From positions 1,358 through 65,357 of the forward strand of contig JAMCZE010000004.1 of the NCBI GenBank assembly GCA_023485845.1: a DNA stretch of 64,000 bases, in the 5' to 3' direction. Positions 9,197-49,052 of the stretch are shown in pieces; positions within the stretch are counted from its first letter, which is position 1; each line of letters begins with the position of its first letter. Under the pieces are notes generated by a model. The model did not search any database. It worked only from the letters and a program-made list of their open reading frames with translations, and was not told where the DNA came from. The translations under genes were made by a program, and so were the position numbers. The DNA is from Patescibacteria group bacterium. Its GTDB lineage: Bacteria; Patescibacteriota; Microgenomatia; JAMCZE01.

Positions 9197-10545
9197 AATT
9201 AGTCGTCCTCATTTTTCTGTTTTGGACACTGGCGGTTTTTGCCATTTTCCAGGGAAAGCATTTTCGGGAATACCAAACCTTCGGGTTAGACACCGGTTTT
9301 TTTGACCAGTTAATTTATGAAGCTTCCAAGGGAAACTTCACCGTTAGCACGATTAGCCAATGGTCGCTGTGGACCGACCATTTTGAACCGATTCTGCTGG
9401 CTTTTGTGCCGTTATATTGGCTTACCCCAAATATTAATTGGTTATTCTTGGGAGAAGCAGCGGTGTTTGCGGCCTCAATCTTTCCGCTTTATCTTCTGGC
9501 CAAAAAAGTTACCAGCTCGCAGCTTTTTTCTTACAGCCTCATTATTGCTTATTTATTTTTGGTGCCCACCCAACATGGCTTGTTTGACGGGTTTGCCTCC
9601 CAAGTGTTCGTGGCCCCATTTCTGGCCCTGGCCTATTGGGCCCTGGAGTCAAAGAAGAATAAACTGTTGATTTTTAGCCTCGTCGGGCTATTTCTTGTTA
9701 AGGAGGAATTTAGCTTATTGATTGCCGGGTTGGGGATGATTGCCTTTCTTTTCTATAAGCGAAGGCGGCTTGGGGTGTTAATGATGCTAGCGGGGATGGC
9801 TGGCTTTGTGTTCCTCACCCGGGTTTTTGATCCTTGGATTTCGCCCGGCAACCTCAATTATGCCCATCAGAATGTCGGTTATGGCCAGGCGCTAAATATT
9901 CTGGCCCGTCCCTATCTTATTCCTTTGGCCTACGTTGACTCACCAATTAAACTGCAAACAATGCTGACCCATTTTGCCGGTTTTGCTTTCCTGCCGCTGC
10001 TGTCGCCAATTAATCTGCTGCTGCTTTTTGAGCAATATGGCCAGCGGTTTATTAACACCAGCGAGCCGCTTAAATGGCTGGCCCACGACTTTGCGTTTGG
10101 GCCAATTCTTCTGATCAGCGCCGCCTATGGGGTGGGCAAGGTGGCCGGACGAAAAGCGGTGGCGCTGTCACTTTTAGTCGTAGTCGTTGCCCTGGCAGGG
10201 GACCTGCTTCTCCACGGGCCGGTTAATTCGCTGTTAAAGCCCGATTTCTATCAGACACCGTCTTGGGCCAAAGATAACAACCAAATTCTCGCGCTGGTGC
10301 CGGCGGGCACCTCGGTGGCTGCCAACAATTCCTTAGTGGCGCACCTGTCCGAGCGGCCACAAATTTATCTTTTGCCCAACGTTAACCGCGCCGATTATGT
10401 GGTGGCGGACTTGCACGGCGGCCCCAACGCCTATGCCCCGATCGATCAGGAAACGACGAGAAGTTTAGTTAGTTGGTTGGTTAGTAGCCGGCAATATCAA
10501 CAAGTTGCTAAAATAGGGCAAGCGGTGCTTTTGAAACGAACATGA
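9193..10545 (+). CDS. Polytopic membrane protein, DUF2079-like (putative GT-C glycosyltransferase)
   Basis: 450 aa, TM-rich, ATGA start/stop overlap with upstream gene. Confidence 0.55.
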   Translation: MKLVVLIFLFWTLAVFAIFQGKHFREYQTFGLDTGFFDQLIYEASKGNFTVSTISQWSLWTDHFEPILLAFVPLYWLTPNINWLFLGEAAVFAASIFPLYLLAKKVTSSQLFSYSLIIAYLFLVPTQHGLFDGFASQVFVAPFLALAYWALESKKNKLLIFSLVGLFLVKEEFSLLIAGLGMIAFLFYKRRRLGVLMMLAGMAGFVFLTRVFDPWISPGNLNYAHQNVGYGQALNILARPYLIPLAYVDSPIKLQTMLTHFAGFAFLPLLSPINLLLLFEQYGQRFINTSEPLKWLAHDFAFGPILLISAAYGVGKVAGRKAVALSLLVVVVALAGDLLLHGPVNSLLKPDFYQTPSWAKDNNQILALVPAGTSVAANNSLVAHLSERPQIYLLPNVNRADYVVADLHGGPNAYAPIDQETTRSLVSWLVSSRQYQQVAKIGQAVLLKRT

Positions 10546-11645
10546 AGATTGCTTTTCTAAGTTTCTACAGCGGCCACGTTGCCCGGGGGGTGGAGACCTA
10601 CGTCCATGAACTGGCTAACCGCCTGGCGGCTAACCACCAGGTGACAGTTTGTCAAGGTGGTCCCCGACTTTCAGATGCTAGATATAACGTTAAAACAATT
10701 CCAGTTCATGTTAATTGGGAAAAAATAAACGGACTTCGCCATCTATCAACTTTAATTATTTTTGACCTTAGTTTTTCTAATATGGCTCGGCGATTCTATT
10801 TGGATTTTTGGAGCCGGGCTCAGGCCGAGTTTGCTAAAAATAGCTTGGCTGTCATAGATGCAGACACCGATATTATTGTGAGTGCTGGATCGGGCTGGGT
10901 TAGTCTGTTTGCCCGACTTTGGTGTTGGCGTCATAAAGCCAAATTAGTGATTGCCGGGCAATCAGGTCCTGGTTGGGACGATCGGATTAACCTTTTTTGT
11001 CGACCGGATGTTTTCATCGGTCTAACTGACTACCAAGTAACCTGGGCTCGACAAAATGGTTTTGGGGCCAAGGTTGTTAAAATTGCTAACGGGGTTGATT
11101 TGAAAAAATTTAATGCGAAAACCAAAAGAGCAGCACTTAACCTTCCACGGCCAATTATTCTTTGTGTTGCAGCCCTGGATCCTGGTAAAAGAGTGGGCTT
11201 AACGATTAGGGCGGTTGCAAATTTGGCCAAGGGGAGTTTGGTCGTGTTAGGGAAGGGAAACCTTAAAGAGGAACTCGATCGCTTGGCTGCTAGACTTCTT
11301 CCCGGGCGTTACCTTAATCTATTCGTCAGTCATGACCAAACCCCTTCATATTACGCTGCCTGTGACTTAGTCACTATGGTGCCTCCAAAGACTGAGTCTT
11401 TTGGTATCGTTTTTTTAGAAGCAATGGCTTCCGGTAAAGCTGTCGTTACCTCGGATGATCCTCCGCGGCGAGAAATAGTCGGGCTGGCTGGCCTCTTTGT
11501 TAATCCGGAAAGCTTGTCAAATTACACAGAGGCTTTGGAGAAAGCCTTGACCATTGATTGGGATAACATGCCTCGACACCAGGCAGAAAAATTTTCTTGG
11601 GACGAGATTGCCAAGCAGTATGAGAGTCTAATTAGAAATTTGTGA
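10542..11645 (+). CDS. GT4 glycosyltransferase
   Basis: MKIAFLSFYSG..., C-terminal GT1 motifs FLEAMASGKAVVTSD; ATGA overlap. Confidence 0.8.
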   Translation: MKIAFLSFYSGHVARGVETYVHELANRLAANHQVTVCQGGPRLSDARYNVKTIPVHVNWEKINGLRHLSTLIIFDLSFSNMARRFYLDFWSRAQAEFAKNSLAVIDADTDIIVSAGSGWVSLFARLWCWRHKAKLVIAGQSGPGWDDRINLFCRPDVFIGLTDYQVTWARQNGFGAKVVKIANGVDLKKFNAKTKRAALNLPRPIILCVAALDPGKRVGLTIRAVANLAKGSLVVLGKGNLKEELDRLAARLLPGRYLNLFVSHDQTPSYYAACDLVTMVPPKTESFGIVFLEAMASGKAVVTSDDPPRREIVGLAGLFVNPESLSNYTEALEKALTIDWDNMPRHQAEKFSWDEIAKQYESLIRNL

Positions 11646-22010: not shown

Positions 22011-22059
22011 AGAGAATTATATAGCATAATATTAGTTGTGTCAAGACCAAGATGACAAG

Positions 22060-30507: not shown

Positions 30508-32394
30508 ATGGACGAAGAAATAAAAGAGATTAAGTTGGACAGTCAGCCGACGTTAACGCCGGTTAAGCCGAAGCGGTCGTTTAAAAAAATTCTTCTCGCG
30601 GCCGCGGCGGTGCTAGTTTTTCTTGGCGTAATTGTCGGCATTCCCTTGGCCAAGGCTTATGTTGACGGCAAAGCGGCCTATCAGCAAACGCTGGCTGTCA
30701 AGGATGCCATTAAATCCTCGGATTTACCACAGGCACAGGTTGCGATCAAGGCCACCCGGACAAAATTGCAGGCAGTTCGGGGCGACCTGAAATTAATTGG
30801 TTGGACCAGTTTTATCCCTTTTCTGGGTGGCTACACTTCCGATGCTAACCACATGATTAACGCGGCGGATTATGGCTTGCAGGCGGCCGATGTGGTGGTG
30901 GCCGGAGTGGAACCATACGCCGACCTTTTGGGTCTTAAGGGCAAGGGCACGTTTACCGGTGGCACGGCCGAGGATCGAATTGCGGAGATGGTCCAGACTT
31001 TGGGCAAAGTGACACCGCAGATTGACGATGTGGCGGCAAAAGTTAAGCTAGTTCGTCAGGAAGTGGATAAAGTCGACCCTGGTCGCTACCCGGGTAATAT
31101 TAATTCGCAATTAACCGACGCGAAGAATTTAATTGATTTGGCGGACAACTTCTTGACGCAGGCCCGGCCGATGGTTAAGCAGTTGCCGGATATGCTTGGG
31201 GCTAACGGTGAGCGCAAGTATATGGTGCTTTTCCAAAACGACAAAGAACTGCGCCCCACCGGCGGATTTATCACCGCCTACGCGATTTTTCGCGTTGACC
31301 AGGGCCGGATTCACCTGGACTCCTCGGATGATATTTATAAGCTTGATGACACCATCACTAAGCATGTGGCGCCGCCGGATCCGATCTCTCGGTATCTTAA
31401 TGTTTATGGCTGGCGGCTGCGTGACTCAAACTTTTCTCCGGATTTTCCCTCGTCAATGCAGGTGTTCACCGATTTATATAACTCTTCCTCAGCCAAACAG
31501 AATTTAAACGGAATCATCGCCATGGACACCGATGTCCTCACCAAAATGATGGGCGTGTTGGGGCCGATTGATGCCTATGGCACGACGTTCACCACCAAAA
31601 CCGTTCCCACCTGCGATTGCCCGATGGTGATTTATGAATTGGAACAATATGCTGACCAGCCAACCAACTATGTGCGCGGCAGCCGTAAAGACATTATCGG
31701 CGTTCTTCTTCAAACAATGATGCAAAAAGCGATGGGATCGGCTCGGGAGGTCTACGCCCCCCTAATTCAGACAGCGATGGCCGAAGCGACACAAAAACAC
31801 ATTTTGTTTTACCTCTATAATGCCGACGCCCAGGCGGGGGTTAATGCTCTGGGTTTTGGCGGGGCGATTAAAACTAACCCTGGCGGTGACTACTTGCATG
31901 TTAACGACGCCAATCTGGCCGGAGCAAAGTCTAATCTTTATGTAACGCAAGCCGTTAAACAGGAAGTTTCGGTGACAGACACAGGGGCAGATGTGACCCT
32001 GACATTGAATTACCGCTATCCCCATCAGGCGGACAATTGCTCCCTAGAGAGAAAAACTGGCCTATGTCTGGCGGGAATCTACCGCGATTATTTACGGGTA
32101 TATCTGCCATTAGGAGCCACCATTGGTGAAGTTCGCGGTTTTGAAAACACCAGCAAAACTTTCCAGGATCTAAATCACACGGTGGTGGACGGTTTCTTCA
32201 CGGTTGTCCCCGAAGGGCTGGCCAAAATTCAGATTTCGTATAAAGTCTCGGGAAACTTCAAAAAAGACGGTGTTTATAAAAGTCTGATCCAAAAGCAGCC
32301 GGGGACAGCGGGCAATCAATACACGCTAATTGTTAATGGGAAACAGCAGGTCTTCAACCTGACCCAGGATCAGGAAATCAGTGTTAAACTCTAG
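30508..32394 (+). CDS. DUF4012 domain-containing membrane-anchored protein
   Basis: 628 aa, N-terminal TM anchor, ERKYMVLFQNDKELRPTGGFITAYAIFRVDQGRIHL (the conserved DUF4012 core). It typically sits next to the sugar transferase. Confidence 0.75.
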   Translation: MDEEIKEIKLDSQPTLTPVKPKRSFKKILLAAAAVLVFLGVIVGIPLAKAYVDGKAAYQQTLAVKDAIKSSDLPQAQVAIKATRTKLQAVRGDLKLIGWTSFIPFLGGYTSDANHMINAADYGLQAADVVVAGVEPYADLLGLKGKGTFTGGTAEDRIAEMVQTLGKVTPQIDDVAAKVKLVRQEVDKVDPGRYPGNINSQLTDAKNLIDLADNFLTQARPMVKQLPDMLGANGERKYMVLFQNDKELRPTGGFITAYAIFRVDQGRIHLDSSDDIYKLDDTITKHVAPPDPISRYLNVYGWRLRDSNFSPDFPSSMQVFTDLYNSSSAKQNLNGIIAMDTDVLTKMMGVLGPIDAYGTTFTTKTVPTCDCPMVIYELEQYADQPTNYVRGSRKDIIGVLLQTMMQKAMGSAREVYAPLIQTAMAEATQKHILFYLYNADAQAGVNALGFGGAIKTNPGGDYLHVNDANLAGAKSNLYVTQAVKQEVSVTDTGADVTLTLNYRYPHQADNCSLERKTGLCLAGIYRDYLRVYLPLGATIGEVRGFENTSKTFQDLNHTVVDGFFTVVPEGLAKIQISYKVSGNFKKDGVYKSLIQKQPGTAGNQYTLIVNGKQQVFNLTQDQEISVKL

Positions 32395-32908
32395 TAAAAT
32401 CGAGGGGGTCATCCTTAAACGGTCCAATCTGGGAGAAGCGGACAAAATTATCATTTTTTTCTCCCGACAGCTGGGAAAAACCAAAGTGCTGGCTAAGGGT
32501 GTTCGGCGGATCAGAAGCCGGCGCGCCCCCGACCTGGAACTATTTAACCATGTTAGTCTGGTTGTCCACCATAGCAAGACGTTTAATCTCGTCACCGAGG
32601 CAAAGACAATCAATAATTACTCTTTGCTTAAGTCCGATTTAAAATCATCCGGTTATCTGTTCTATCTTTGCGAGGTCTTGGATAAGATCTTACCGGAGGA
32701 CCAGCCTCATCCGGACTTGTTTGGCAATTTTTTGGCATTTCTCAATTCGCCGCTTAACCAAGATGGTGTTAAAAGATTTGTCGTGGAACTGTTATGGTCG
32801 TTGGGCTATTTGCCCCGCGGCCAATATCCTCGGGCTGGCGTCACCGACCTTGTCGAATCCATCGTCGAGCGTCCCATCCGCAGCAAGAAGTTTTTGGAAG
32901 AGATTTAA
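32381..32908 (+). CDS. recO: DNA repair protein RecO (short form, no C-terminal zinc-finger region)
   Basis: GTG start; IEGVILKRSNLGEADKIIIFFSRQLGKTKVLAKGVRRIRSRRA matches the RecO N-terminal OB-fold region. Confidence 0.7.
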   Translation: MLNSSKIEGVILKRSNLGEADKIIIFFSRQLGKTKVLAKGVRRIRSRRAPDLELFNHVSLVVHHSKTFNLVTEAKTINNYSLLKSDLKSSGYLFYLCEVLDKILPEDQPHPDLFGNFLAFLNSPLNQDGVKRFVVELLWSLGYLPRGQYPRAGVTDLVESIVERPIRSKKFLEEI

Positions 32909-32950
32909 CCTTGTTGACTTCTTGGAAGGTGAATAGTATTGTAAAGACAA

Positions 32951-33601
32951 ATGGAAACGAATGATGTTGCAGCAAAAGATCAGTGGAAATCGACTAAACC
33001 GGAGGAAGTGGTAAAACTTGGAAAAATGGGGACCACCTGGAAACACGGTCTTCTAGGCGCATTTTATTATATGAGCTCAACCGGGCTTCAGGAATCGCCA
33101 AGATATCCCCAAGAGGAGCCATTCACAGCGACGCTAAAAGAATACACTGATGGTTGGCACACCATCAAGTATCAAGAACCTGATGGGGAGGGGATTTATT
33201 GGCAACTTGACTATAAGAAAAATCCAAACAACGAAGTTGAGTGGAAATTCGATACTGTCATTCATGGCCAACACCTCCCGGTGGGTTTTAGTATCAGACC
33301 GAGTTCTATCGACTATGGGAAATATGCGCCCAGACTAATTTGTGATGAGCGTCAGTATTGGGATGCCCATAGTATTCAAGCGCAAGCTAAACAAATGGCC
33401 GAGTTCTTGTCAGATCCAGGTTTCAATGGGGTTCTTCCCAAAGACCTGTTGCCGGACGCTGCCCTAGCAGCAAGAGAATTAGCGGATCGTTGGGGTAAAG
33501 AAATAGACGCCGTTAGTGATCCAAATTCTGAGCTTAGGGCCTTGAATTATCAGAAACTCGAGGCTCAAGCTAATAAAGTAAAATCGGCAATGGGCTCCTA
33601 A
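32951..33601 (+). CDS. Hypothetical protein
   Basis: 216 aa ORF, AT-richer, no recognisable motifs; its stop is 2 nt from the convergent downstream stop. Confidence 0.45.
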   Translation: METNDVAAKDQWKSTKPEEVVKLGKMGTTWKHGLLGAFYYMSSTGLQESPRYPQEEPFTATLKEYTDGWHTIKYQEPDGEGIYWQLDYKKNPNNEVEWKFDTVIHGQHLPVGFSIRPSSIDYGKYAPRLICDERQYWDAHSIQAQAKQMAEFLSDPGFNGVLPKDLLPDAALAARELADRWGKEIDAVSDPNSELRALNYQKLEAQANKVKSAMGS

Positions 33602-33603
33602 AG

Positions 33604-34489
33604 TCACTTCTGTAAAAATTCAGCGAAAGATTTTGGAGGATTCTTCAGGAGATTTTCTAAGACTTTTCCGGGCATTATGATCTCTCTTAATAGTTTCTGA
33701 ATTCTTCTTGCAACATACGAATAGCCTAATGGGTAGCACAATTCTTGCAATTTTTGACAAGTTCTTCCGATATTGTAGTTGTTGTTCATTCGTAAAGCCC
33801 GGAAAAGCTCCCCTAGTGTAGTTTGAAAATCATTCACTATTTTCTCTAATTGATATGGACGATAATAATGCTCTTCTGCTTTAGTAAAAGCAGGCTTTGA
33901 AAATTGATCATTCTTTAAACCCGTATATATTCCAGCCCAACTTGCTACTCCCTCATCAACAATATGCATAATGTAGGCATTTTGTAGTTCTCCCTGAAGA
34001 CGAGCATAGGCATTATTGTAAGTGTCTTCCATCACGATTTTCCTAACACGTTTAAGGCTAAGGGTGTATGCGGGTTCTCGTCTATTCACCCACGCATGCA
34101 TATCTTCGTGCAAGGTTGCATGCTGCTGTCCACTTACATCCCCACGTATAAACAACAACGAAGAAAGGTATAACCGTGTCGGTACGATCATCGTAAAAAC
34201 TTTCCTCCTTTGTTACGTCGTCTTCCTGGAAATTACGAAAATTTACATGGCCCTCTTTTAAATTATTGATAAACAAGACTAAATGACGAAGCCCCATTTG
34301 GCGTTGATTATAAATTACCACCCTCGGTTTCCTCTCGCCAAACGATATACCTAACGTCTGTTCCAAGGTTTCAGCCCAAGAATTAGAAATTTCTTCCAAT
34401 CCAAGCCAGCGTCTTATTTCTGCCCTGGGTTTCTCCAATTTAGACTTAACACCAGAAGAATGTGCAAGATCAGACGACAATTCATTCAC
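33604..34489 (-). pseudogene. Hypothetical protein of about 295 aa, apparently frameshifted (track ORFs 34489..34082 and 34191..33604 overlap in different frames)
   Basis: The two minus-strand ORFs overlap by about 110 nt. The N-part ends ...DRTDTVIPFF and the C-part starts MIVPTRLYLSS in the +1 frame. GTG start at 34489. Confidence 0.4.
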
Positions 34490-34531
34490 TGGTGTAAATA
34501 ATACTACATTTGTAAATTGGGGTCTATTCTA

Positions 34532-34560
34532 TTGACAGGAAAATTTTTATGGGATACAAT
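34532..34560 (+). promoter_or_regulatory. Near-consensus sigma70 promoter TTGACA-17-TACAAT
   Basis: Exact TTGACA, 17-nt spacer, TACAAT. It lies in the divergent region between the minus-strand gene (start 34489) and the small + strand ORF. Confidence 0.5.
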
Positions 34561-34591
34561 TATCACAGTATTAGCATATATTACAAAGCTT

Positions 34592-34831
34592 ATGACCGAA
34601 AGACCACGTTTCAATAACGAAAGAAGAAAGGTTTCGTTAGCTCAACTTTACAGTGTGTTGGCGATTACGGCTGGAGTAACAATGGATGTAATGGTGGGAA
34701 TTCTTAATATAGACTTCCTCAGGGGTATGTATTTTGAAGCTACTTACCCAGATCTTTTAATAGTTGGAGCAGTAATGGTTGTTGCTGGGGCAATTGGTTA
34801 TGCCGTTGCCTCTAAGCCCGAAAATAGGTAA
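34592..34831 (+). CDS. Small membrane protein (2 predicted TM helices)
   Basis: First ATG downstream of the promoter; MTERPRFNNERRK...LAITAGVTMDVMVGILNI...LLIVGAVMVVAGAIGYAVA. The track ORF begins at an upstream TTG that overlaps the promoter. Confidence 0.4.
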   Translation: MTERPRFNNERRKVSLAQLYSVLAITAGVTMDVMVGILNIDFLRGMYFEATYPDLLIVGAVMVVAGAIGYAVASKPENR

Positions 34832-34912
34832 ACATTTTCTAACGACGCGACGCTTCATCACTTTTTAACTGCCATGATGTTGCTTATTGTTGAATAGGAT
34901 ATAATTAGTTGA

Positions 34913-35284
34913 ATGGTAGATGCAATAAAAGATAAAGGACAGGGTGAAGTTGGGAAACCAGATATTAAAGTTGCCTTTGATAAGTTGCCAAGACAGTCGC
35001 AAGGGCTTCTTATTTCCATGACGCATTTTCCCTCTGCGTCTGGGGGAACAAGGGAGGCAGTTTTGGCAATTTCGGGTCTGGATGAGGCCGAGTTGGATAA
35101 AGCATTGGCAGATCTCTCCAAATTTGGGTTGGTACAAAAAGGAAAGTTAGTGGGCGAAGGGAGAGATAAACGGCTAGTCGAAGATGGAAACGGTGATCGG
35201 TTTAGTCTCGAGGCCGAGACAAAAGCCGGTGTTTTTGAGAAAATTCTGGAAATGCCATTTAATAAAGAAGATCCCCTGTTTTGA
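34913..35284 (+). CDS. Hypothetical protein (possible helix-turn-helix region)
   Basis: 123 aa; a TATAAT -10 element lies 8 nt upstream; its stop is 4 nt from the convergent stop of the next gene. Confidence 0.45.
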   Translation: MVDAIKDKGQGEVGKPDIKVAFDKLPRQSQGLLISMTHFPSASGGTREAVLAISGLDEAELDKALADLSKFGLVQKGKLVGEGRDKRLVEDGNGDRFSLEAETKAGVFEKILEMPFNKEDPLF

Positions 35285-35288
35285 TTAA

Positions 35289-35783
35289 TTAAGACGGGTT
35301 TTGACCATTTTCCGGGATTTCAATAATCCCAATTACTATTTTTCCTTTCTTCACGAATTCTGGTAGGTTGTTTGTGACGATTGCGTGAGCGCTGTTATCC
35401 CTGGTGTGATAGAGAACAATAACATCCTTGTCTTTAGGTAGCTCTACTTGTTGAGGGCCGGTGTGTAGAACTAAACCTAGTTCAGCACAGATCTTCGGTA
35501 TATCTGCGCCGTCAACGACGTCAGGCAGGTTTTCCACATCAATACCTTGTGCCTCTCTGAGAGCTCGACGCAGACACCGTCCAGTCTCATCTTCTGATCC
35601 AGTTGGTGATTTATAGTTACCTTGCAATTTAATTTTCTTGAGAGGTAAGTTGACTTTACCTTCCCTATCAAGTTTATCAGCTTGGTGGAACTGAGCGAGG
35701 TCTTCTGCTTCAAGTTCACCCCTTGCAGCTGCTTTCTGGTAATGCTTAAAGAATCTTTCAGTTGCTGAATCTTGGCTAGGCAT
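35289..35783 (-). CDS. Hypothetical protein
   Basis: 164 aa, ATG at 35783, no recognisable family. Confidence 0.45.
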   Translation of the reverse strand: MPSQDSATERFFKHYQKAAARGELEAEDLAQFHQADKLDREGKVNLPLKKIKLQGNYKSPTGSEDETGRCLRRALREAQGIDVENLPDVVDGADIPKICAELGLVLHTGPQQVELPKDKDVIVLYHTRDNSAHAIVTNNLPEFVKKGKIVIGIIEIPENGQNPS

Positions 35784-35889
35784 ATTAGTCTATAATATAG
35801 CATAAACAGAAGATTTAAGGTTGGTAAATTTCTTTATGGCGAAATTTGATATGCTAAGAATATGGACTTGTTGAAAAAATTTGTCAGTC

Positions 35890-35918
35890 TTGACAGAGAA
35901 TTACGACCGCGGTATACT
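35890..35918 (+). promoter_or_regulatory. Sigma70-like promoter TTGACA-17-TATACT upstream of NYN/glyS
   Basis: Exact TTGACA, 17-nt spacer, TATACT. Confidence 0.4.
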
Positions 35919-35931
35919 AAAAACATAACCG

Positions 35932-35970
35932 CCTCAGCCATGTCGCAAGACCCGCTGAGGTTATTTTTTT
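35932..35970 (+). terminator. Leader hairpin plus T-run (terminator/attenuator-like) between the promoter and the NYN start codon
   Basis: CCTCAGC-(15 nt loop)-GCTGAGG followed by TTATTTTTTT. The T-run abuts the start codon, leaving no room for an SD. Confidence 0.45.
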
Positions 35971-35971
35971 G

Positions 35972-36550
35972 ATGAAAACAGTCATTTTTATTGATGGTGA
36001 AAATTTTATTCACAAAATTGAGGATGTTTTAGAGGAGAGTGGTGTTGAACAAAAGAAGATCAACCAGTCAAAGATTAAACTGAAGCAGCTTCTGGAAAAA
36101 GTTTTGGCGCCACAAAAAATCGACCAAGTCGTTTTTTATGCAGCCAAACTTCATTTTTATCCCGAGACGGCGCAGAGATCTCAACTGCTCATCAACCGCC
36201 AGCGGTCACTAAAGGCCGAGCTTGAGAAACAAAAGATTACTTTCATTATTGCCGGGAACGTTCGCGCCCAAGTTGTCACCGGTGGGAAAACAGTCTTTAA
36301 AGAGAAAGGTGTCGATGTTAAAATGGCAATAGATATGGTAACGCAGGCCTGCGACCATAAATTAAAAACGGCTGTTATCTGTTCAAGTGATTCTGACCTT
36401 CAACCGGCAGTTTATGAACTCAAGAAACGAAAGGTTGAGACAATTTATTTAGGTTTTGAAACAAGCCCAAATAAAGGGCTAACCGCAACGACTGATAAAT
36501 CAATTCTCTTTCGAAATGCAGAAATTTTGGAAGCATTTAGAGAAAGTTAA
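35972..36550 (+). CDS. NYN-domain (LabA-like, PIN-fold) protein, second paralog
   Basis: VIFIDGENF...KGVDVKMAIDMV...VICSSDSDLQPAV are the canonical NYN motifs. Confidence 0.7.
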   Translation: MKTVIFIDGENFIHKIEDVLEESGVEQKKINQSKIKLKQLLEKVLAPQKIDQVVFYAAKLHFYPETAQRSQLLINRQRSLKAELEKQKITFIIAGNVRAQVVTGGKTVFKEKGVDVKMAIDMVTQACDHKLKTAVICSSDSDLQPAVYELKKRKVETIYLGFETSPNKGLTATTDKSILFRNAEILEAFRES

Positions 36551-36553
36551 ACT

Positions 36554-37822
36554 ATGGACTTGATGGAAAAAATTGTCAGCCTTTGCAAGCGGCGGGGATT
36601 TGTTTATCCCGGCAGTGAGATCTATGGAGGATTGTCCAACACTTGGGATTTCGGGCCATTTGGATTGGCACTGCGCAAAAACATCAAGGCGCTCTGGTGG
36701 CGGGAATTTGTGGAGAAGGAAGAGAACATTTTAGGCCTTGATGGGGGAATTATTCTTTCGCCACGGGTTTGGGAGGCCTCTGGTCATGTGGAAAACTTCA
36801 CTGATCCCCTGGTGGAATGTAAAAGTTGCCACACCCGTTTTCGGGCCGATCAGTTAGGGGACACTAAGAAATGCCCGGATTGCGGTGGTCAATTGTCCGA
36901 GCCGCGGCGGTTTAATGGAATGTTTCGCACCACAGTCGGGGCGACGGAAGACTCAAACGCCGTGGTTTATCTCCGGCCGGAAACAGCCCAGGCAATTTTT
37001 ATTAACTTTAAAAATATCGTTGATTCGTTTCATCCAAAACTGCCGTTTGGCATTGCCCAAATCGGTAAAGCATTTCGTAACGAAATCACGGCGGGAAACT
37101 TTATTTTCCGCGATATTGAGTTTGAACAACATGAACTGGAGTATTTTCTGCCGGAGGCAATCTGGGAAGAAAAATATGACTATTGGCTGGCAAAGATGCA
37201 CGACTTTGCCAAGTTAATCGGCCTGGCGCCGGAGATGGTTCACGAGCGGGAACATTCTCCCCAGGAACGCTCCCACTATTCAAAAAAAACCGTTGATCTG
37301 GAATTTGACTTCCCGTTTGGCCGCAAAGAACTTTGGGGGCTGGCCTACCGGACAGATTATGACCTGCGCAACCACAGTGAGAAGTCAGGGGTGGATTTGA
37401 AATATGAAGGCAGCTTTCCCCATGTGATTGAACCATCAATGGGGGTGGATCGGACCATGCTGGCTGTTTTGTGTTCTGCCTACTTCGAAGATGAAAAGCG
37501 GGTAGTTTTGAAACTTCAGCCCAGTTTGGCGCCTTATAAAGTTGCCGTTTTTCCTTTGGTGGCCAACAAAGAAGAGCTGGTGGGCAAGGCAAGGGGGATT
37601 TATGAGAAGTTAAAAAAGAGTTTCATGACCGCCTGGGATGACCGGGGAAATATCGGAAAAAGATACCTCTCTCAGGATGAAATCGGGACGCCGTGGTGCG
37701 TGACGGTGGACTACCAAACCTTGGAGGACGACACGGTGACGATTCGAGATCGAAATACCACTAGACAAGAGCGAATAAAAGTTGCTAATCTAGAAACATG
37801 GATAAAAGAAAGATTGGTGTAA
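36554..37822 (+). CDS. glyS: Glycyl-tRNA synthetase, dimeric class II (archaeal/eukaryote-like GlyRS), short form
   Basis: [37 protein letters not shown] is the GlyRS N-terminus. Also a Cys4-type insertion CKSCH...CPDCGG and class II motifs. Confidence 0.9.
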
Positions 37823-38298
37823 TCGCCGCGGTTATTATTGTTTTGGTGGGTGCTGTTGGGCTAATGGTCTATCAAAAGTCCCAGGTTAAACCAGCGGCCA
37901 CACCGTCGGCCGTGTCCACTTCACCAACCGTGGCTAAGGTGGATCTTTCCACCCAACCGGCGTGGGTGCAAAATTTGGAGGTGACTGCAAAAAAGGGCCG
38001 TAGTGCTAATGGGCTGGACAATGTGACGGTGACGGTGACAGGCATCCCAGCCAACACCGTTTCCGGGGTAACCTATGTGATGCAGTATCAAACGACCAAT
38101 AAGGGCACCCAGGGAGCCCTATCGATGACTCCAATTGATCTCACTGGTAGAACGACATTCTCCAAGGCCATTGATCTGGGAACGTGTTCCACCAGTTCTT
38201 GTGTGCGCCACGAAGGTGTCACCTCCGTTGACTTAGAGCTGGATTTTGTTGCCCTCGACGGCTCCAAGCCGGTCTGGGAAAAAACTCTTGACCTATAA
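37798..38298 (+). CDS. Hypothetical membrane-anchored, Thr/Ser-rich secreted protein
   Basis: N-terminal [21 protein letters not shown], then a T/S/V-rich domain; overlaps the glyS stop by 25 nt. Confidence 0.45.
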
Positions 38299-38325
38299 TA
38301 AACAAGGAGTTATAATACCCTCGTT

Positions 38326-38691
38326 ATGGGACAGAAGCTGAAAAGTTGTGAACAACTCTTAAAGTCGTGTGGAGATAGCATCACGCCAATATCTCGGTAT
38401 CTCCTGTTTAAAGACGGTGACATCCATGTGATATCGAGACGTGGCGAAGACCATGGTGATGTTCTTGATACCTCTGGATATAGCCAAGATGAGGTTCATC
38501 TTGCCGGGATGATTATGGCAATGAAATTAAGAAGCCAAACATATTTTTCCGTCGATGCGAATGGCTCACACACTCTTGCCCTACGTTTTCATCGACCAAT
38601 AAATGTGGGCCAAGGTAATCCAGAAGTCGTTATTGCTAAACTTAAAGAATTGCCGGACGCTGCCAACTTCAATTTTCAAGCAAGCGAATAG
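38326..38691 (+). CDS. Hypothetical protein
   Basis: 121 aa ORF; AAGGAG about 15 nt upstream. Confidence 0.4.
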   Translation: MGQKLKSCEQLLKSCGDSITPISRYLLFKDGDIHVISRRGEDHGDVLDTSGYSQDEVHLAGMIMAMKLRSQTYFSVDANGSHTLALRFHRPINVGQGNPEVVIAKLKELPDAANFNFQASE

Positions 38692-47726: not shown

Positions 47727-49052
47727 ATGCGAGTGACTAAATACGTGGTAACCGGGGGAACGCCGCTTCGGGGTGAGGTTCACCTTCATGGAGCTAAAAA
47801 TGCGGGCTTTAAGGCCATGATTGCCTCGCTTTTGGCCGATTCGCCCTCAACCATTTGCGATCTTGGTCTCATTTCGGAAATAGACTTTGCTAAGCAGGTG
47901 ATCACCCAGCTTGGCGGCAAAATAACACCCCAATCCAACCCCCATTGTCTAGAAATTGATCCAACAAATCTAAATTCTTTTTCGGTTGCTAAGGAAATAG
48001 GGGAAAAGTCAAGAGCGTCTAATTTATATGCACCTTCACTATTACATAGGTTCGGAAAGGTTTCATTGCCAGTCCCCGGTGGCGATCAAATTGGAAGGCG
48101 GCCTCTGGAGCGCCACTTTGCAGGACTAGAAGCAATGGGTGCGAAAATAACAATTGCACAGAATGAAATTAGAATAGAGACACCAAATGGCTTGACGGGC
48201 ACGAATTTCCATTTTGCTAAGAATACCCACACCGGTACAGAATTTCTTGTTATGGCAGCTGCTTGGGCTAAGGGAGAAACCATTCTTAGTAATGCTGCTG
48301 CCGAGCCAGAGGTTGATGACCTGATTAAATTTTTAAACTCTATGGGTGGCAATATTAAAAGAGTGGCGGAGAGGACAATCAGAATCTTTGGCGTTGAGCA
48401 CTTTCATGGTGCAAAGCATACAGTAATGCGAGATAGGAATGAGGCCGTTACTTTTGCTTGCGCTTCCCTGGTGACCAATGGGGACATTAAAATCATTGGT
48501 GCCGACCCGACGGTTTTGCAAATCTTGTTGCAAAAGGTTGAAGAAGCCGGTGGAAGGTATGAGATAGGTGAGAACTTTATTCAATTTAGCTTGAAAGGGG
48601 CCCTGAAGCCGACAAAAATCGTTGCCACGCCTTATCCAGGGTTCATGACCGATTGGCAGCCTCTTTGGTCAACAATAATGACACAGGCAGATGGCGAATC
48701 AATTGTTCATGAAACGATTTACGAAAAAAGATTCGATTATGTTCCGAACCTGATCAAAATGGGCGCGAAGATAGATTTTTTTGAACCGGACATTAAAAAC
48801 CCAGATGAAATCTATAATTTCAATTTATCTGATGACACCCACGGAAATAAACACGCAATCAAGATTTATGGGAAGACGTCACTCAAAGGAGTTGAAGTGG
48901 AAATAAGCGATATTCGCAGCGGGGCCACGGCGCTATTGGCGGGAGTGACCGCAGACGGCCAAACAACAGTCATTGATCCCAAGGATCAGATCAAGCGCGG
49001 GTATGAATGTCTCCCCGAGCAACTTGTTTCTCTTGGCGCAAAGATAATATAA
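47727..49052 (+). CDS. murA: UDP-N-acetylglucosamine 1-carboxyvinyltransferase MurA
   Basis: VTGGTPLRGEVHLHGAKNAGFKAM... Confidence 0.9.
   Translation: MRVTKYVVTGGTPLRGEVHLHGAKNAGFKAMIASLLADSPSTICDLGLISEIDFAKQVITQLGGKITPQSNPHCLEIDPTNLNSFSVAKEIGEKSRASNLYAPSLLHRFGKVSLPVPGGDQIGRRPLERHFAGLEAMGAKITIAQNEIRIETPNGLTGTNFHFAKNTHTGTEFLVMAAAWAKGETILSNAAAEPEVDDLIKFLNSMGGNIKRVAERTIRIFGVEHFHGAKHTVMRDRNEAVTFACASLVTNGDIKIIGADPTVLQILLQKVEEAGGRYEIGENFIQFSLKGALKPTKIVATPYPGFMTDWQPLWSTIMTQADGESIVHETIYEKRFDYVPNLIKMGAKIDFFEPDIKNPDEIYNFNLSDDTHGNKHAIKIYGKTSLKGVEVEISDIRSGATALLAGVTADGQTTVIDPKDQIKRGYECLPEQLVSLGAKII

Follow-up and report, generated by a model that had tools for sequence, protein, structure and literature searches.

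A compositionally foreign islet of five small genes beside recO in a Patescibacteria genome, probably acquired horizontally into a variable slot

In this work, we have analysed a 64-kb stretch of DNA from an uncultured Patescibacteria group bacterium (contig JAMCZE010000004.1), which we call the window, and within it a 2.95-kb segment (32909..35860) that lies directly downstream of recO and carries five small open reading frames, ORF1 to ORF5, on both strands. Our results indicate that this segment is probably a lineage-specific accessory islet, a patchwork of five small genes acquired horizontally in a variable slot. Its composition is foreign, the nearest relative that we found lacks it, it holds a pseudogene, and an adjacency of an ORF4-like and an ORF5-like gene recurs in one other contig. 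We would class it as a new case of an accessory islet in a variable slot, a type of locus that is already known. An earlier analysis of the letters alone (the sequence-only reading) had seen here a small defence or addiction island, or a degraded mobile element, and the best candidate in the window for an undescribed system; that the islet is a defence or addiction system is neither shown nor excluded. The window proteins are identical to entries in two NCBI metagenome-assembled genomes (MAGs) named "Patescibacteria group bacterium", and neither RecO nor GlyRS clusters with another protein at 90% identity, which indicates a thin sampling of this lineage.

Results

Five small genes of atypical composition

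The islet starts with ORF1 (216 aa; 32951..33601, + strand), followed by ORF2 (33604..34489, - strand), a pseudogene of about 295 aa that a frameshift splits into ORF2b (33604-34191) and ORF2a (34082-34489). ORF3 (34517..34831, + strand) codes for a membrane mini-protein, ORF4 (34913..35284, + strand) for a 123-aa member of a winged-helix-like family of 100-150 aa proteins, and ORF5 (35289..35783, - strand) for a 164-aa protein made of a helical hairpin and then a Cys/His alpha/beta domain. The convergent stops of ORF1/ORF2b are 2 nt apart and those of ORF4/ORF5 4 nt, while outside the islet the + strand carries nearly all genes of the window. The GC content at 33500-36500 is 0.37-0.44, versus 0.478 window-wide. 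Taking 36 long genes of the window as the codon reference set, the GC content at third codon positions (GC3) of the five ORFs (0.31-0.42) is 2 to 3.8 standard deviations (SD) lower than the reference value of 0.537 +/- 0.059; that of the NYN-domain gene on the right of the islet is likewise low (0.37). In each islet ORF the codon score of its own frame is higher than those of the five alternative frames, which argues for coding. The ORF map and the composition thus agree with the sequence-only reading on five compact, AT-rich ORFs on both strands, unlike their flanks, and on the two pairs of closely spaced stops. Its placement of the islet between recO and glyS was right on the recO side, but the right neighbour is the NYN gene followed by glyS, and not glyS directly.

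That reading had recognised no family among the five products, and indeed no family of Pfam, PHROG, PADLOC or NCBIfam matches any of them. With PADLOC-DB 2.0 at E <= 0.1 no model was found for ORF1-ORF5, the sole matches being those of the NYN protein to HEC-09 and to a generic NYN model. Scans of the islet with Pfam, NCBIfam and PHROGs revealed no integrase, transposase or relaxase domain, no repeat pair bracketing 32909-35860 was found (the sole significant repeat brackets the NYN gene), and islet homologs were absent from the 50,697 phage and 72,556 plasmid records searched by tblastn. A scan of viral contigs with ORF5 and a metagenome-contig search with the family alignment A6 also gave no match and no relative, respectively. 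No tRNA was detected in the window, nor any Rfam family at gathering thresholds. The suggestion of a defence island or a degraded mobile element therefore stands as to the foreign composition, the absence from a relative, the one decayed gene and the Abi- and toxin-antitoxin-type neighbourhoods of the homologs described below, but its identity as either is not borne out by any known defence or toxin-antitoxin model, integrase, transposase, terminal repeat, or phage or plasmid match.

The slot is empty of these genes in the nearest relative

The closest relative found, L049, is a contig from Hainich groundwater that we met through a DNA-pattern scan for the leader of the NYN gene, and of which 1.5 kb were examined. 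Its RecO is 71% identical to that of the window, which is encoded by the conserved left flank of the islet (32381..32908, + strand; Pfam RecO_N and RecO_C), and its NYN protein is 81% (tblastn) or 82% (global alignment) identical. In L049 recO and the NYN gene are separated by about 315 nt, which comprise a slot of about 190 nt, a relic of the start of glyS, and the promoter and hairpin that precede the NYN gene. The similarity between the window and L049 ends at the recO stop codon and restarts at the glyS relic. The comparison at the junction that the sequence-only reading had proposed thus shows recO, about 190 nt, and then the NYN cassette, and the slot holds a small zinc-ribbon ORF and none of the five islet genes. 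This zinc-ribbon ORF (523-700 on the reverse complement of L049) appears frameshifted at an A7 run, which could be an assembly error or a sign of a pseudogene. In L049 the NYN gene is followed by an EamA-like gene and not by glyS.

In three distant Paceibacteria contigs (L002, L004 and L007; GlyRS 55-58% identical) the genes for IleRS, RecO, a protein of about 640 aa, GlyRS and an M16 peptidase follow each other on one strand. The filler between recO and glyS is there an N-terminally membrane-anchored protein. This shared gene order implies that the neighbourhood from recO to glyS is old and that its filler varies by lineage. The absence from L049, the composition and the pseudogene together make acquisition in the lineage of the window the most likely history.

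The five genes do not travel together

Homologs of the islet families were sought by running HMMER in full against 1.84 billion representatives with one concatenated query (ORF1+ORF2b+ORF4+ORF5), which found 3 homolog clusters for ORF1, 2 for ORF2, 17 for ORF4 and 19 for ORF5. The E-values were 1e-22 to 1e-58 for the ORF1, ORF4 and ORF5 homologs, and the ORF2 homologs are full-length. We inspected the contexts of the homologs where contigs allowed and screened the fetched loci by tblastn. The homologs of ORF1, ORF2, ORF4 and ORF5 lie mostly in separate, unrelated contexts, and each locus other than the window carries at most two of the islet families. The neighbourhoods are variable and often include AbiEii, HicA, MNT/HepT, CopG and Fic genes. 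As the families do not travel together, the view of the islet as an undescribed five-gene system found no backing; only the pairing of an ORF4-like with an ORF5-like gene recurs, in the contig L020. There the ORF4-like gene (hhalign E = 5.5e-5) lies 20 nt upstream of the ORF5 homolog, both genes being co-directional, whereas ORF4 and ORF5 are convergent in the window; a second, clear ORF4-family gene lies at most 1 kb away. The sequence-only reading had allowed that the ORFs might prove to be syntenic core genes of relatives or to lack a coding signal; the ORFs turned out not to belong to a syntenic core, and both homologs and coding signal are present for four of them.

ORF2 is a pseudogene

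Two ORF2 homologs, P0048 (326 aa) and P0052 (274 aa), are single intact ORFs that cover both halves of the window gene. These intact homologs establish that the split, which had been noticed in the sequence as a frameshift in a 295-aa minus-strand ORF, is a true frameshift. It is due to one surplus base near 34144-34150 (...GTT TAT A CGT GGG...), and the frameshifted sequence is identical in the two NCBI MAGs and in independent Logan assemblies from two sequencing runs. We also considered a programmed frameshift and rejected it, because a slippery or homopolymer motif is absent at the shift. The alignment of the three sequences of the family shows the invariant motifs HExxH, EGxAxW, YxxGY and NPP, and the residues H128, E129, H132 and E180-G181-x-A183-x-W185, invariant in the three sequences, comprise the HExxH motif and a downstream glutamate as candidate ligand. 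Going by these motifs, ORF2 looks like a dead gluzincin-type metallopeptidase. The best Pfam match of the family is BSP (E = 0.071, in one member only), and a PDB profile search gave nothing relevant. Two other sequences with comparable motifs, the HExxH part of P0028 (a fusion with an ORF5-like domain) and a HELLH protein beside an ORF4 homolog in L017, were tried as homologs of ORF2 and rejected (hhalign probability < 1% in both cases).

Features of the remaining products

ORF1 has one full-length homolog (P0014, 49% identity) and two partial ones. Its AlphaFold (AF2) model consists of an N-terminal beta meander followed by three helices (pLDDT 70), and a fold search with this model gave no structural match.

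ORF3, taken for a mini-protein with two transmembrane segments by the sequence-only reading, does show two hydrophobic segments (residues 44-65 and 78-99). The promoter-like site TTGACA-17-TACAAT (34532..34560, + strand; 11/12 match) lies within its annotated start, and an alternative start, the ATG at 34592 downstream of this site, would shorten the product from the listed 104 aa to 79 aa.

Below the significance threshold, Pfam matches recur among the ORF4 family: HTH_67 in 5 of 18 members, and also Rrf2, MarR_2, DprA_WH and HTH_36. Profile matches to the PDB (E = 0.04-1.5) are mostly to Lrs14-like and MarR/SlyA regulators. Since these weak matches consistently point to winged-helix regulators, ORF4 can be described as a winged-helix-like protein.

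In the ORF5 family H133 is invariant, Gly68-x-Cys70 nearly invariant and Glu155 mostly conserved, and none of the 20 members of the family is matched by a Pfam model. The AF2 model of ORF5 has a pLDDT of 89.7 and a pTM of 0.85. In this model C70 starts the helix 70-79 and H133 lies in the strand 132-137, the papain-like layout of a candidate nucleophile cysteine and a histidine. C70, H133 and E155 are the candidate catalytic residues. We propose from the model that ORF5 may be a cytoplasmic Cys/His hydrolase of the papain/CHAP-like kind, the fold match itself being statistically unsupported. A conserved family of helical proteins of about 96 aa, which has no Pfam match and is absent from the window, follows ORF5-family genes in L014 (1343-1639) and L021 (3332-3622) and is fused to one in P0017 (residues 161-256).

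The adjoining NYN cassette and its leader hairpin

The gene to the right of the islet (35972..36550, + strand; 192 aa) codes for an NYN-domain protein whose match to Pfam PF01936 covers profile positions 1-141 of 145 and scores 64.3 bits (gathering cut-off 24.2; E = 2.3e-17). It is followed by the right flank, glyS (36554..37822, + strand), the gene for class II glycyl-tRNA synthetase. Upstream of the NYN start codon come, in this order, a promoter (TTGACA-17-TATACT; 35890..35918, + strand; 11/12 match), about 12 nt, and the hairpin CCUCAGC-CAU-GUC GCAA GAC-CC-GCUGAGG with its U-tract (35932..35971, + strand). This leader hairpin is the most unusual feature of the neighbourhood, strikingly conserved and undescribed. 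It folds with -17.8 kcal/mol (z = -3.6), and with the U-tract that follows it is terminator-like.

A scan with the exact leader pattern found 36 metagenome contigs. A sigma-70 promoter stands at a fixed upstream distance in 34 of them, the distance between promoter and hairpin being fixed in 27 distinct copies, and in most of the 36 a gene of the same NYN subfamily starts 7-70 nt downstream of the leader. The 15 distinct full-length NYN proteins have a mean pairwise identity of 64%, with a minimum of 48%. The search pattern fixes the stems. Outside what it prescribes, near invariance is still seen in CAU.AACG, in the CC bulge, in the U6 tract and in the promoter hexamers. The L026 loci, found independently through ORF5 homologs, have an NYN protein about 48% identical and almost the same leader. 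There is one leader copy per locus, and when the 443 kb of fetched DNA were scanned with a covariance model, no additional, diverged copies emerged. In 35780-36000 no tandem repeats were found, and Rfam 15 at E <= 10 gave only a chance snoRNA match. A viral search found no copies of the leader, and no publication that connects NYN genes with Patescibacteria or with RNA antitoxins came up in our literature search. The 3' arm of the hairpin contains a Shine-Dalgarno-like GAGG, whose distance to a downstream (A/G)UG is 7 nt in most copies and to the NYN start here 11 nt, and from this arrangement the stem could mask the ribosome-binding site.

In loci with unrelated flanks the DNA similarity runs from the -35 box to the NYN stop, which defines a discrete unit of about 685 bp. 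Such cassettes occur in many unrelated Patescibacteria contexts (L026-L029 and L034-L069), about 25 in number, all but one of which (the L026 group) are without islet partners. The contigs L040 and L035 share the same flanks; the NYN coding sequence (about 582 bp) is precisely what is missing from L040, and the promoter and the hairpin are kept and now stand ahead of a DUF5674 gene.

The sequence-only reading had counted two consensus promoters for the islet. Both sites match in 11 of 12 positions, but the one at 35890 belongs to the NYN cassette and not to the islet, and the one at 34532 lies inside the annotated start of ORF3. Six sigma-70-like sites with a match of at least 11/12 were found window-wide, versus 0.88 +/- 0.92 in block shuffles, and promoter-like sites therefore exceed chance. 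A weak promoter-like site for ORF5 (35859..35887, - strand; 9/12) stands back to back with the -35 box of the NYN promoter. A palindrome, TGTCA-N4-TGACA (35882-35895), spans the -35 boxes of these two divergent promoters and is possibly an operator.

Duplicated gene ends as probable marks of insertion

A 31-nt direct repeat (35861-35891 and 36553-36583, 27/31 identical) brackets the NYN gene with two copies of the first ten glyS codons. The left copy (35861..35891, + strand) is a relic of the former glyS start and opens a 36-codon ORF (35862-35972), whose TGA overlaps the ATG of the NYN gene. The relic is also found in L049, where it is longer, and this sharing implies that the NYN insertion predates the islet. 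A comparable scar was seen in L013 (855-942 versus 1649-1787), where diverged direct copies of the 3' terminus of an ABC ATPase gene (57 nt, 84% identity, and 31 nt, 94%) stand on either side of an ORF1 homolog, the second copy being broken by a 51-nt GC-rich insert. Duplicated gene ends of this kind could have arisen by homology-facilitated illegitimate recombination, the donor having carried the cassette beside the same conserved gene.

Other promoter-like sites in the window

Other near-consensus sites with 17-nt spacers lie at 22044 (- strand, 12/12), 14279 (- strand, 11/12) and 60448 (+ strand, 11/12). A third 11/12 promoter, TTGACC-17-TATAAT (38288-38316), precedes a 121-aa ORF (38326-38691) between glyS and mraZ. 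This ORF has a GC3 of 0.377 and no Pfam match, and may be a further small inserted gene.

Discussion

We propose that the slot between recO and the former start of glyS is permissive, and that five genes from families restricted to Patescibacteria would have built up in it. ORF1 and ORF3 would be stand-alone cargo and ORF2 would already be dead, so that ORF4 and ORF5 would be the only part resembling a functional module, in which ORF4 may act as a DNA-binding regulator or as a partner of the ORF5 enzyme. The NYN gene would be a separate and older acquisition, a cassette of about 685 bp that landed in the first glyS codons. Acquisition may have occurred by recombination leaving duplicated gene ends, a route that we infer, as we do all the biochemical roles given here.

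Several observations weigh against this proposal. Only one close relative was found, with 1.5 kb of sequence to compare, and a deletion in L049 is conceivable. In L014 (539-814) the last 45 or so recO codons stand directly ahead of an ORF5 homolog that is 63% identical, which hints, from the arrangement of this contig, that the adjacency of ORF5 and recO is older than a recent insertion. The pairing of ORF4 and ORF5 is seen in two loci only, the window and L020. In L026-L029, where the locus is flanked by ftsK and the gene for RNase J, ORF5 homologs adjoin an NYN gene of the same subfamily, and the helical protein of about 96 aa is adjacent to them in L014 and L021 and fused to them in P0017; with such neighbours elsewhere, the true partner of ORF5 is uncertain. 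ORF3 had no homolog in the fetched loci, no sensitive search having been made for it. As to the enzyme proposed for ORF5, the best PDB matches of its model in Foldseek are CHAP domains with E = 0.05-0.28 and a TM of about 0.31, and an hhalign comparison with the LysK CHAP domain gave a probability of 0.4%, which is not significant. We also note that in L014 a repeat-like sequence (CATTGCGAGCGAA...) precedes the recO 3' fragment and resembles interspersed palindromic elements.

Could the islet be ancestral to the lineage and lost in L049, its odd composition reflecting low expression? The link between the recO 3' fragment and an ORF5 homolog in L014 would suit this history, other genes of the window also have a low GC3 (for example 10542-11645 and 47727-49052), and L040 shows that clean deletions occur in these genomes. 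However, the slot of L049 holds a different small gene, the zinc-ribbon ORF, and not a scar, and the distant relatives carry yet another filler. In composition each of the five ORFs deviates by 2 to 3.8 SD, and homologs of the individual genes are found in unrelated contexts. We therefore regard an ancestral islet as unlikely.

A different proposal is that the five ORFs, with or without the NYN gene, form one undescribed defence or addiction system in which ORF4 would be the sensor or regulator, ORF5, ORF2 and NYN the effectors, and ORF3 a membrane component. The compact arrangement with its own promoters, the ORF5 homologs beside ORF4-like genes and beside NYN, the fusion of an ORF5-like domain to an HExxH domain in P0028, and the abundance of toxin-antitoxin and Abi genes around the homologs all speak for it. 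Yet the loci apart from the window have two of the families at most, ORF2 is inactivated here, the P0028 HExxH domain shows no homology to ORF2, PADLOC finds nothing for ORF1-ORF5, and the NYN cassettes lack these partners in all but one of about 25 contexts, so that a single system of this kind is very unlikely.

That some or all of the ORFs are spurious frames in a non-coding AT-rich spacer, as might be thought from the codon scores of ORF2, ORF3 and ORF5 (under the reference range), the lack of a known homolog for ORF3 and one empty protein-homolog search (uninformative, since it also missed the window's own proteins), is extremely unlikely given the best codon score in the own frame of every ORF and the high-confidence ORF5 model, and is already refuted for ORF1, ORF2, ORF4 and ORF5 by their HMMER homologs and conserved motifs.

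How does the accessory islet compare with known systems? With genomic islets and variable hotspots it shares the atypical composition, the mixed orientation, the pseudogene and a content that varies at a conserved junction, and its homologs lie near AbiEii, HicA, HepT/MNT, CopG and Fic genes. It differs from them in having no integrase, transposase, tRNA target, terminal repeats or known defence family, the sole scars here being duplicated ends of flanking genes. ORF5 resembles CHAP and NlpC-P60 proteins in the cysteine at the N-terminus of a helix, the histidine in a strand about 63 residues on and the later conserved acidic residue, and the best PDB matches of its model, although not significant, are the CHAP domains of LysGH15 and LysK; unlike those proteins it has no signal peptide or cell-wall-binding domain, and it has an N-terminal helical hairpin. 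In type II toxin-antitoxin pairs a DNA-binding antitoxin and a toxin come from two small co-transcribed genes; ORF4 and ORF5 are convergent here, the corresponding genes of L020 are co-directional and 20 nt apart, and these two loci are the only ones that show the pair. ORF2 has in common with gluzincins (MA clan; the ImmA/IrrE type is found with HTH repressors) the HExxH motif, the EGxAxW motif about 50 residues later, a possible third zinc ligand, and the small wHTH-like ORF4 nearby. In contrast to these systems, ORF2 has no significant match to a peptidase family, is inactivated, and is not adjacent to ORF4.

The NYN cassette, with a promoter, a short structured RNA, a terminator-like hairpin and a gene of an endoribonuclease family, is as compact as the type III (ToxIN-like) toxin-antitoxin systems and occurs, as they do, in many contexts. 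We rejected its membership in this class, since its leader is one hairpin and not a set of tandem RNA repeats; its putative nuclease is NYN/PIN-like and not ToxN/AbiEi-like. HEC-09, to which the NYN protein is matched with E = 4.6e-13, is an NYN-domain protein that occurs inside Hma systems. The similarity comes from the common domain only, and the NYN gene of the window is not embedded in a defence system. This match was rejected as evidence of defence because HEC-09 was inactive when tested, giving no protection against any phage assayed (bioRxiv 10.1101/2024.01.29.577857).

We can also speculate, at low probability, that promoter, hairpin and NYN gene would make up a new, self-contained and horizontally moving RNase module, whose near-invariant leader RNA of about 45 nt might be an autoregulatory target, a stem sequestering the Shine-Dalgarno sequence or a type III-like RNA antitoxin, and that the ORF5-family proteins with interchangeable partners would be a second, Patescibacteria-specific conflict or addiction system. 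The partners named are the ORF4-like wHTH protein, the helical protein of about 96 aa, NYN and the fused HExxH domain. If this were true, the islet would bring together, as a small hub, undescribed modules of the immunity type.

What does the locus mean for these bacteria? The findings do not yet amount to a demonstrated new system. They describe, at a conserved junction, a clear case of a slot with variable content that can be set against an "empty" relative, and they make two uncharacterised families nameable and testable: the ORF5 family, with a candidate Cys/His site and a confident model, and the ORF4-like winged-helix proteins, which adjoin it in one other contig. A further, incidental result is a highly conserved leader hairpin not described before, which marks a single-gene NYN RNase cassette of about 685 bp that has spread in groundwater Patescibacteria. 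The Patescibacteria are episymbionts with tiny genomes, and in genomes so small each accessory gene that is kept is informative on how these organisms cope with phages, hosts and competitors.

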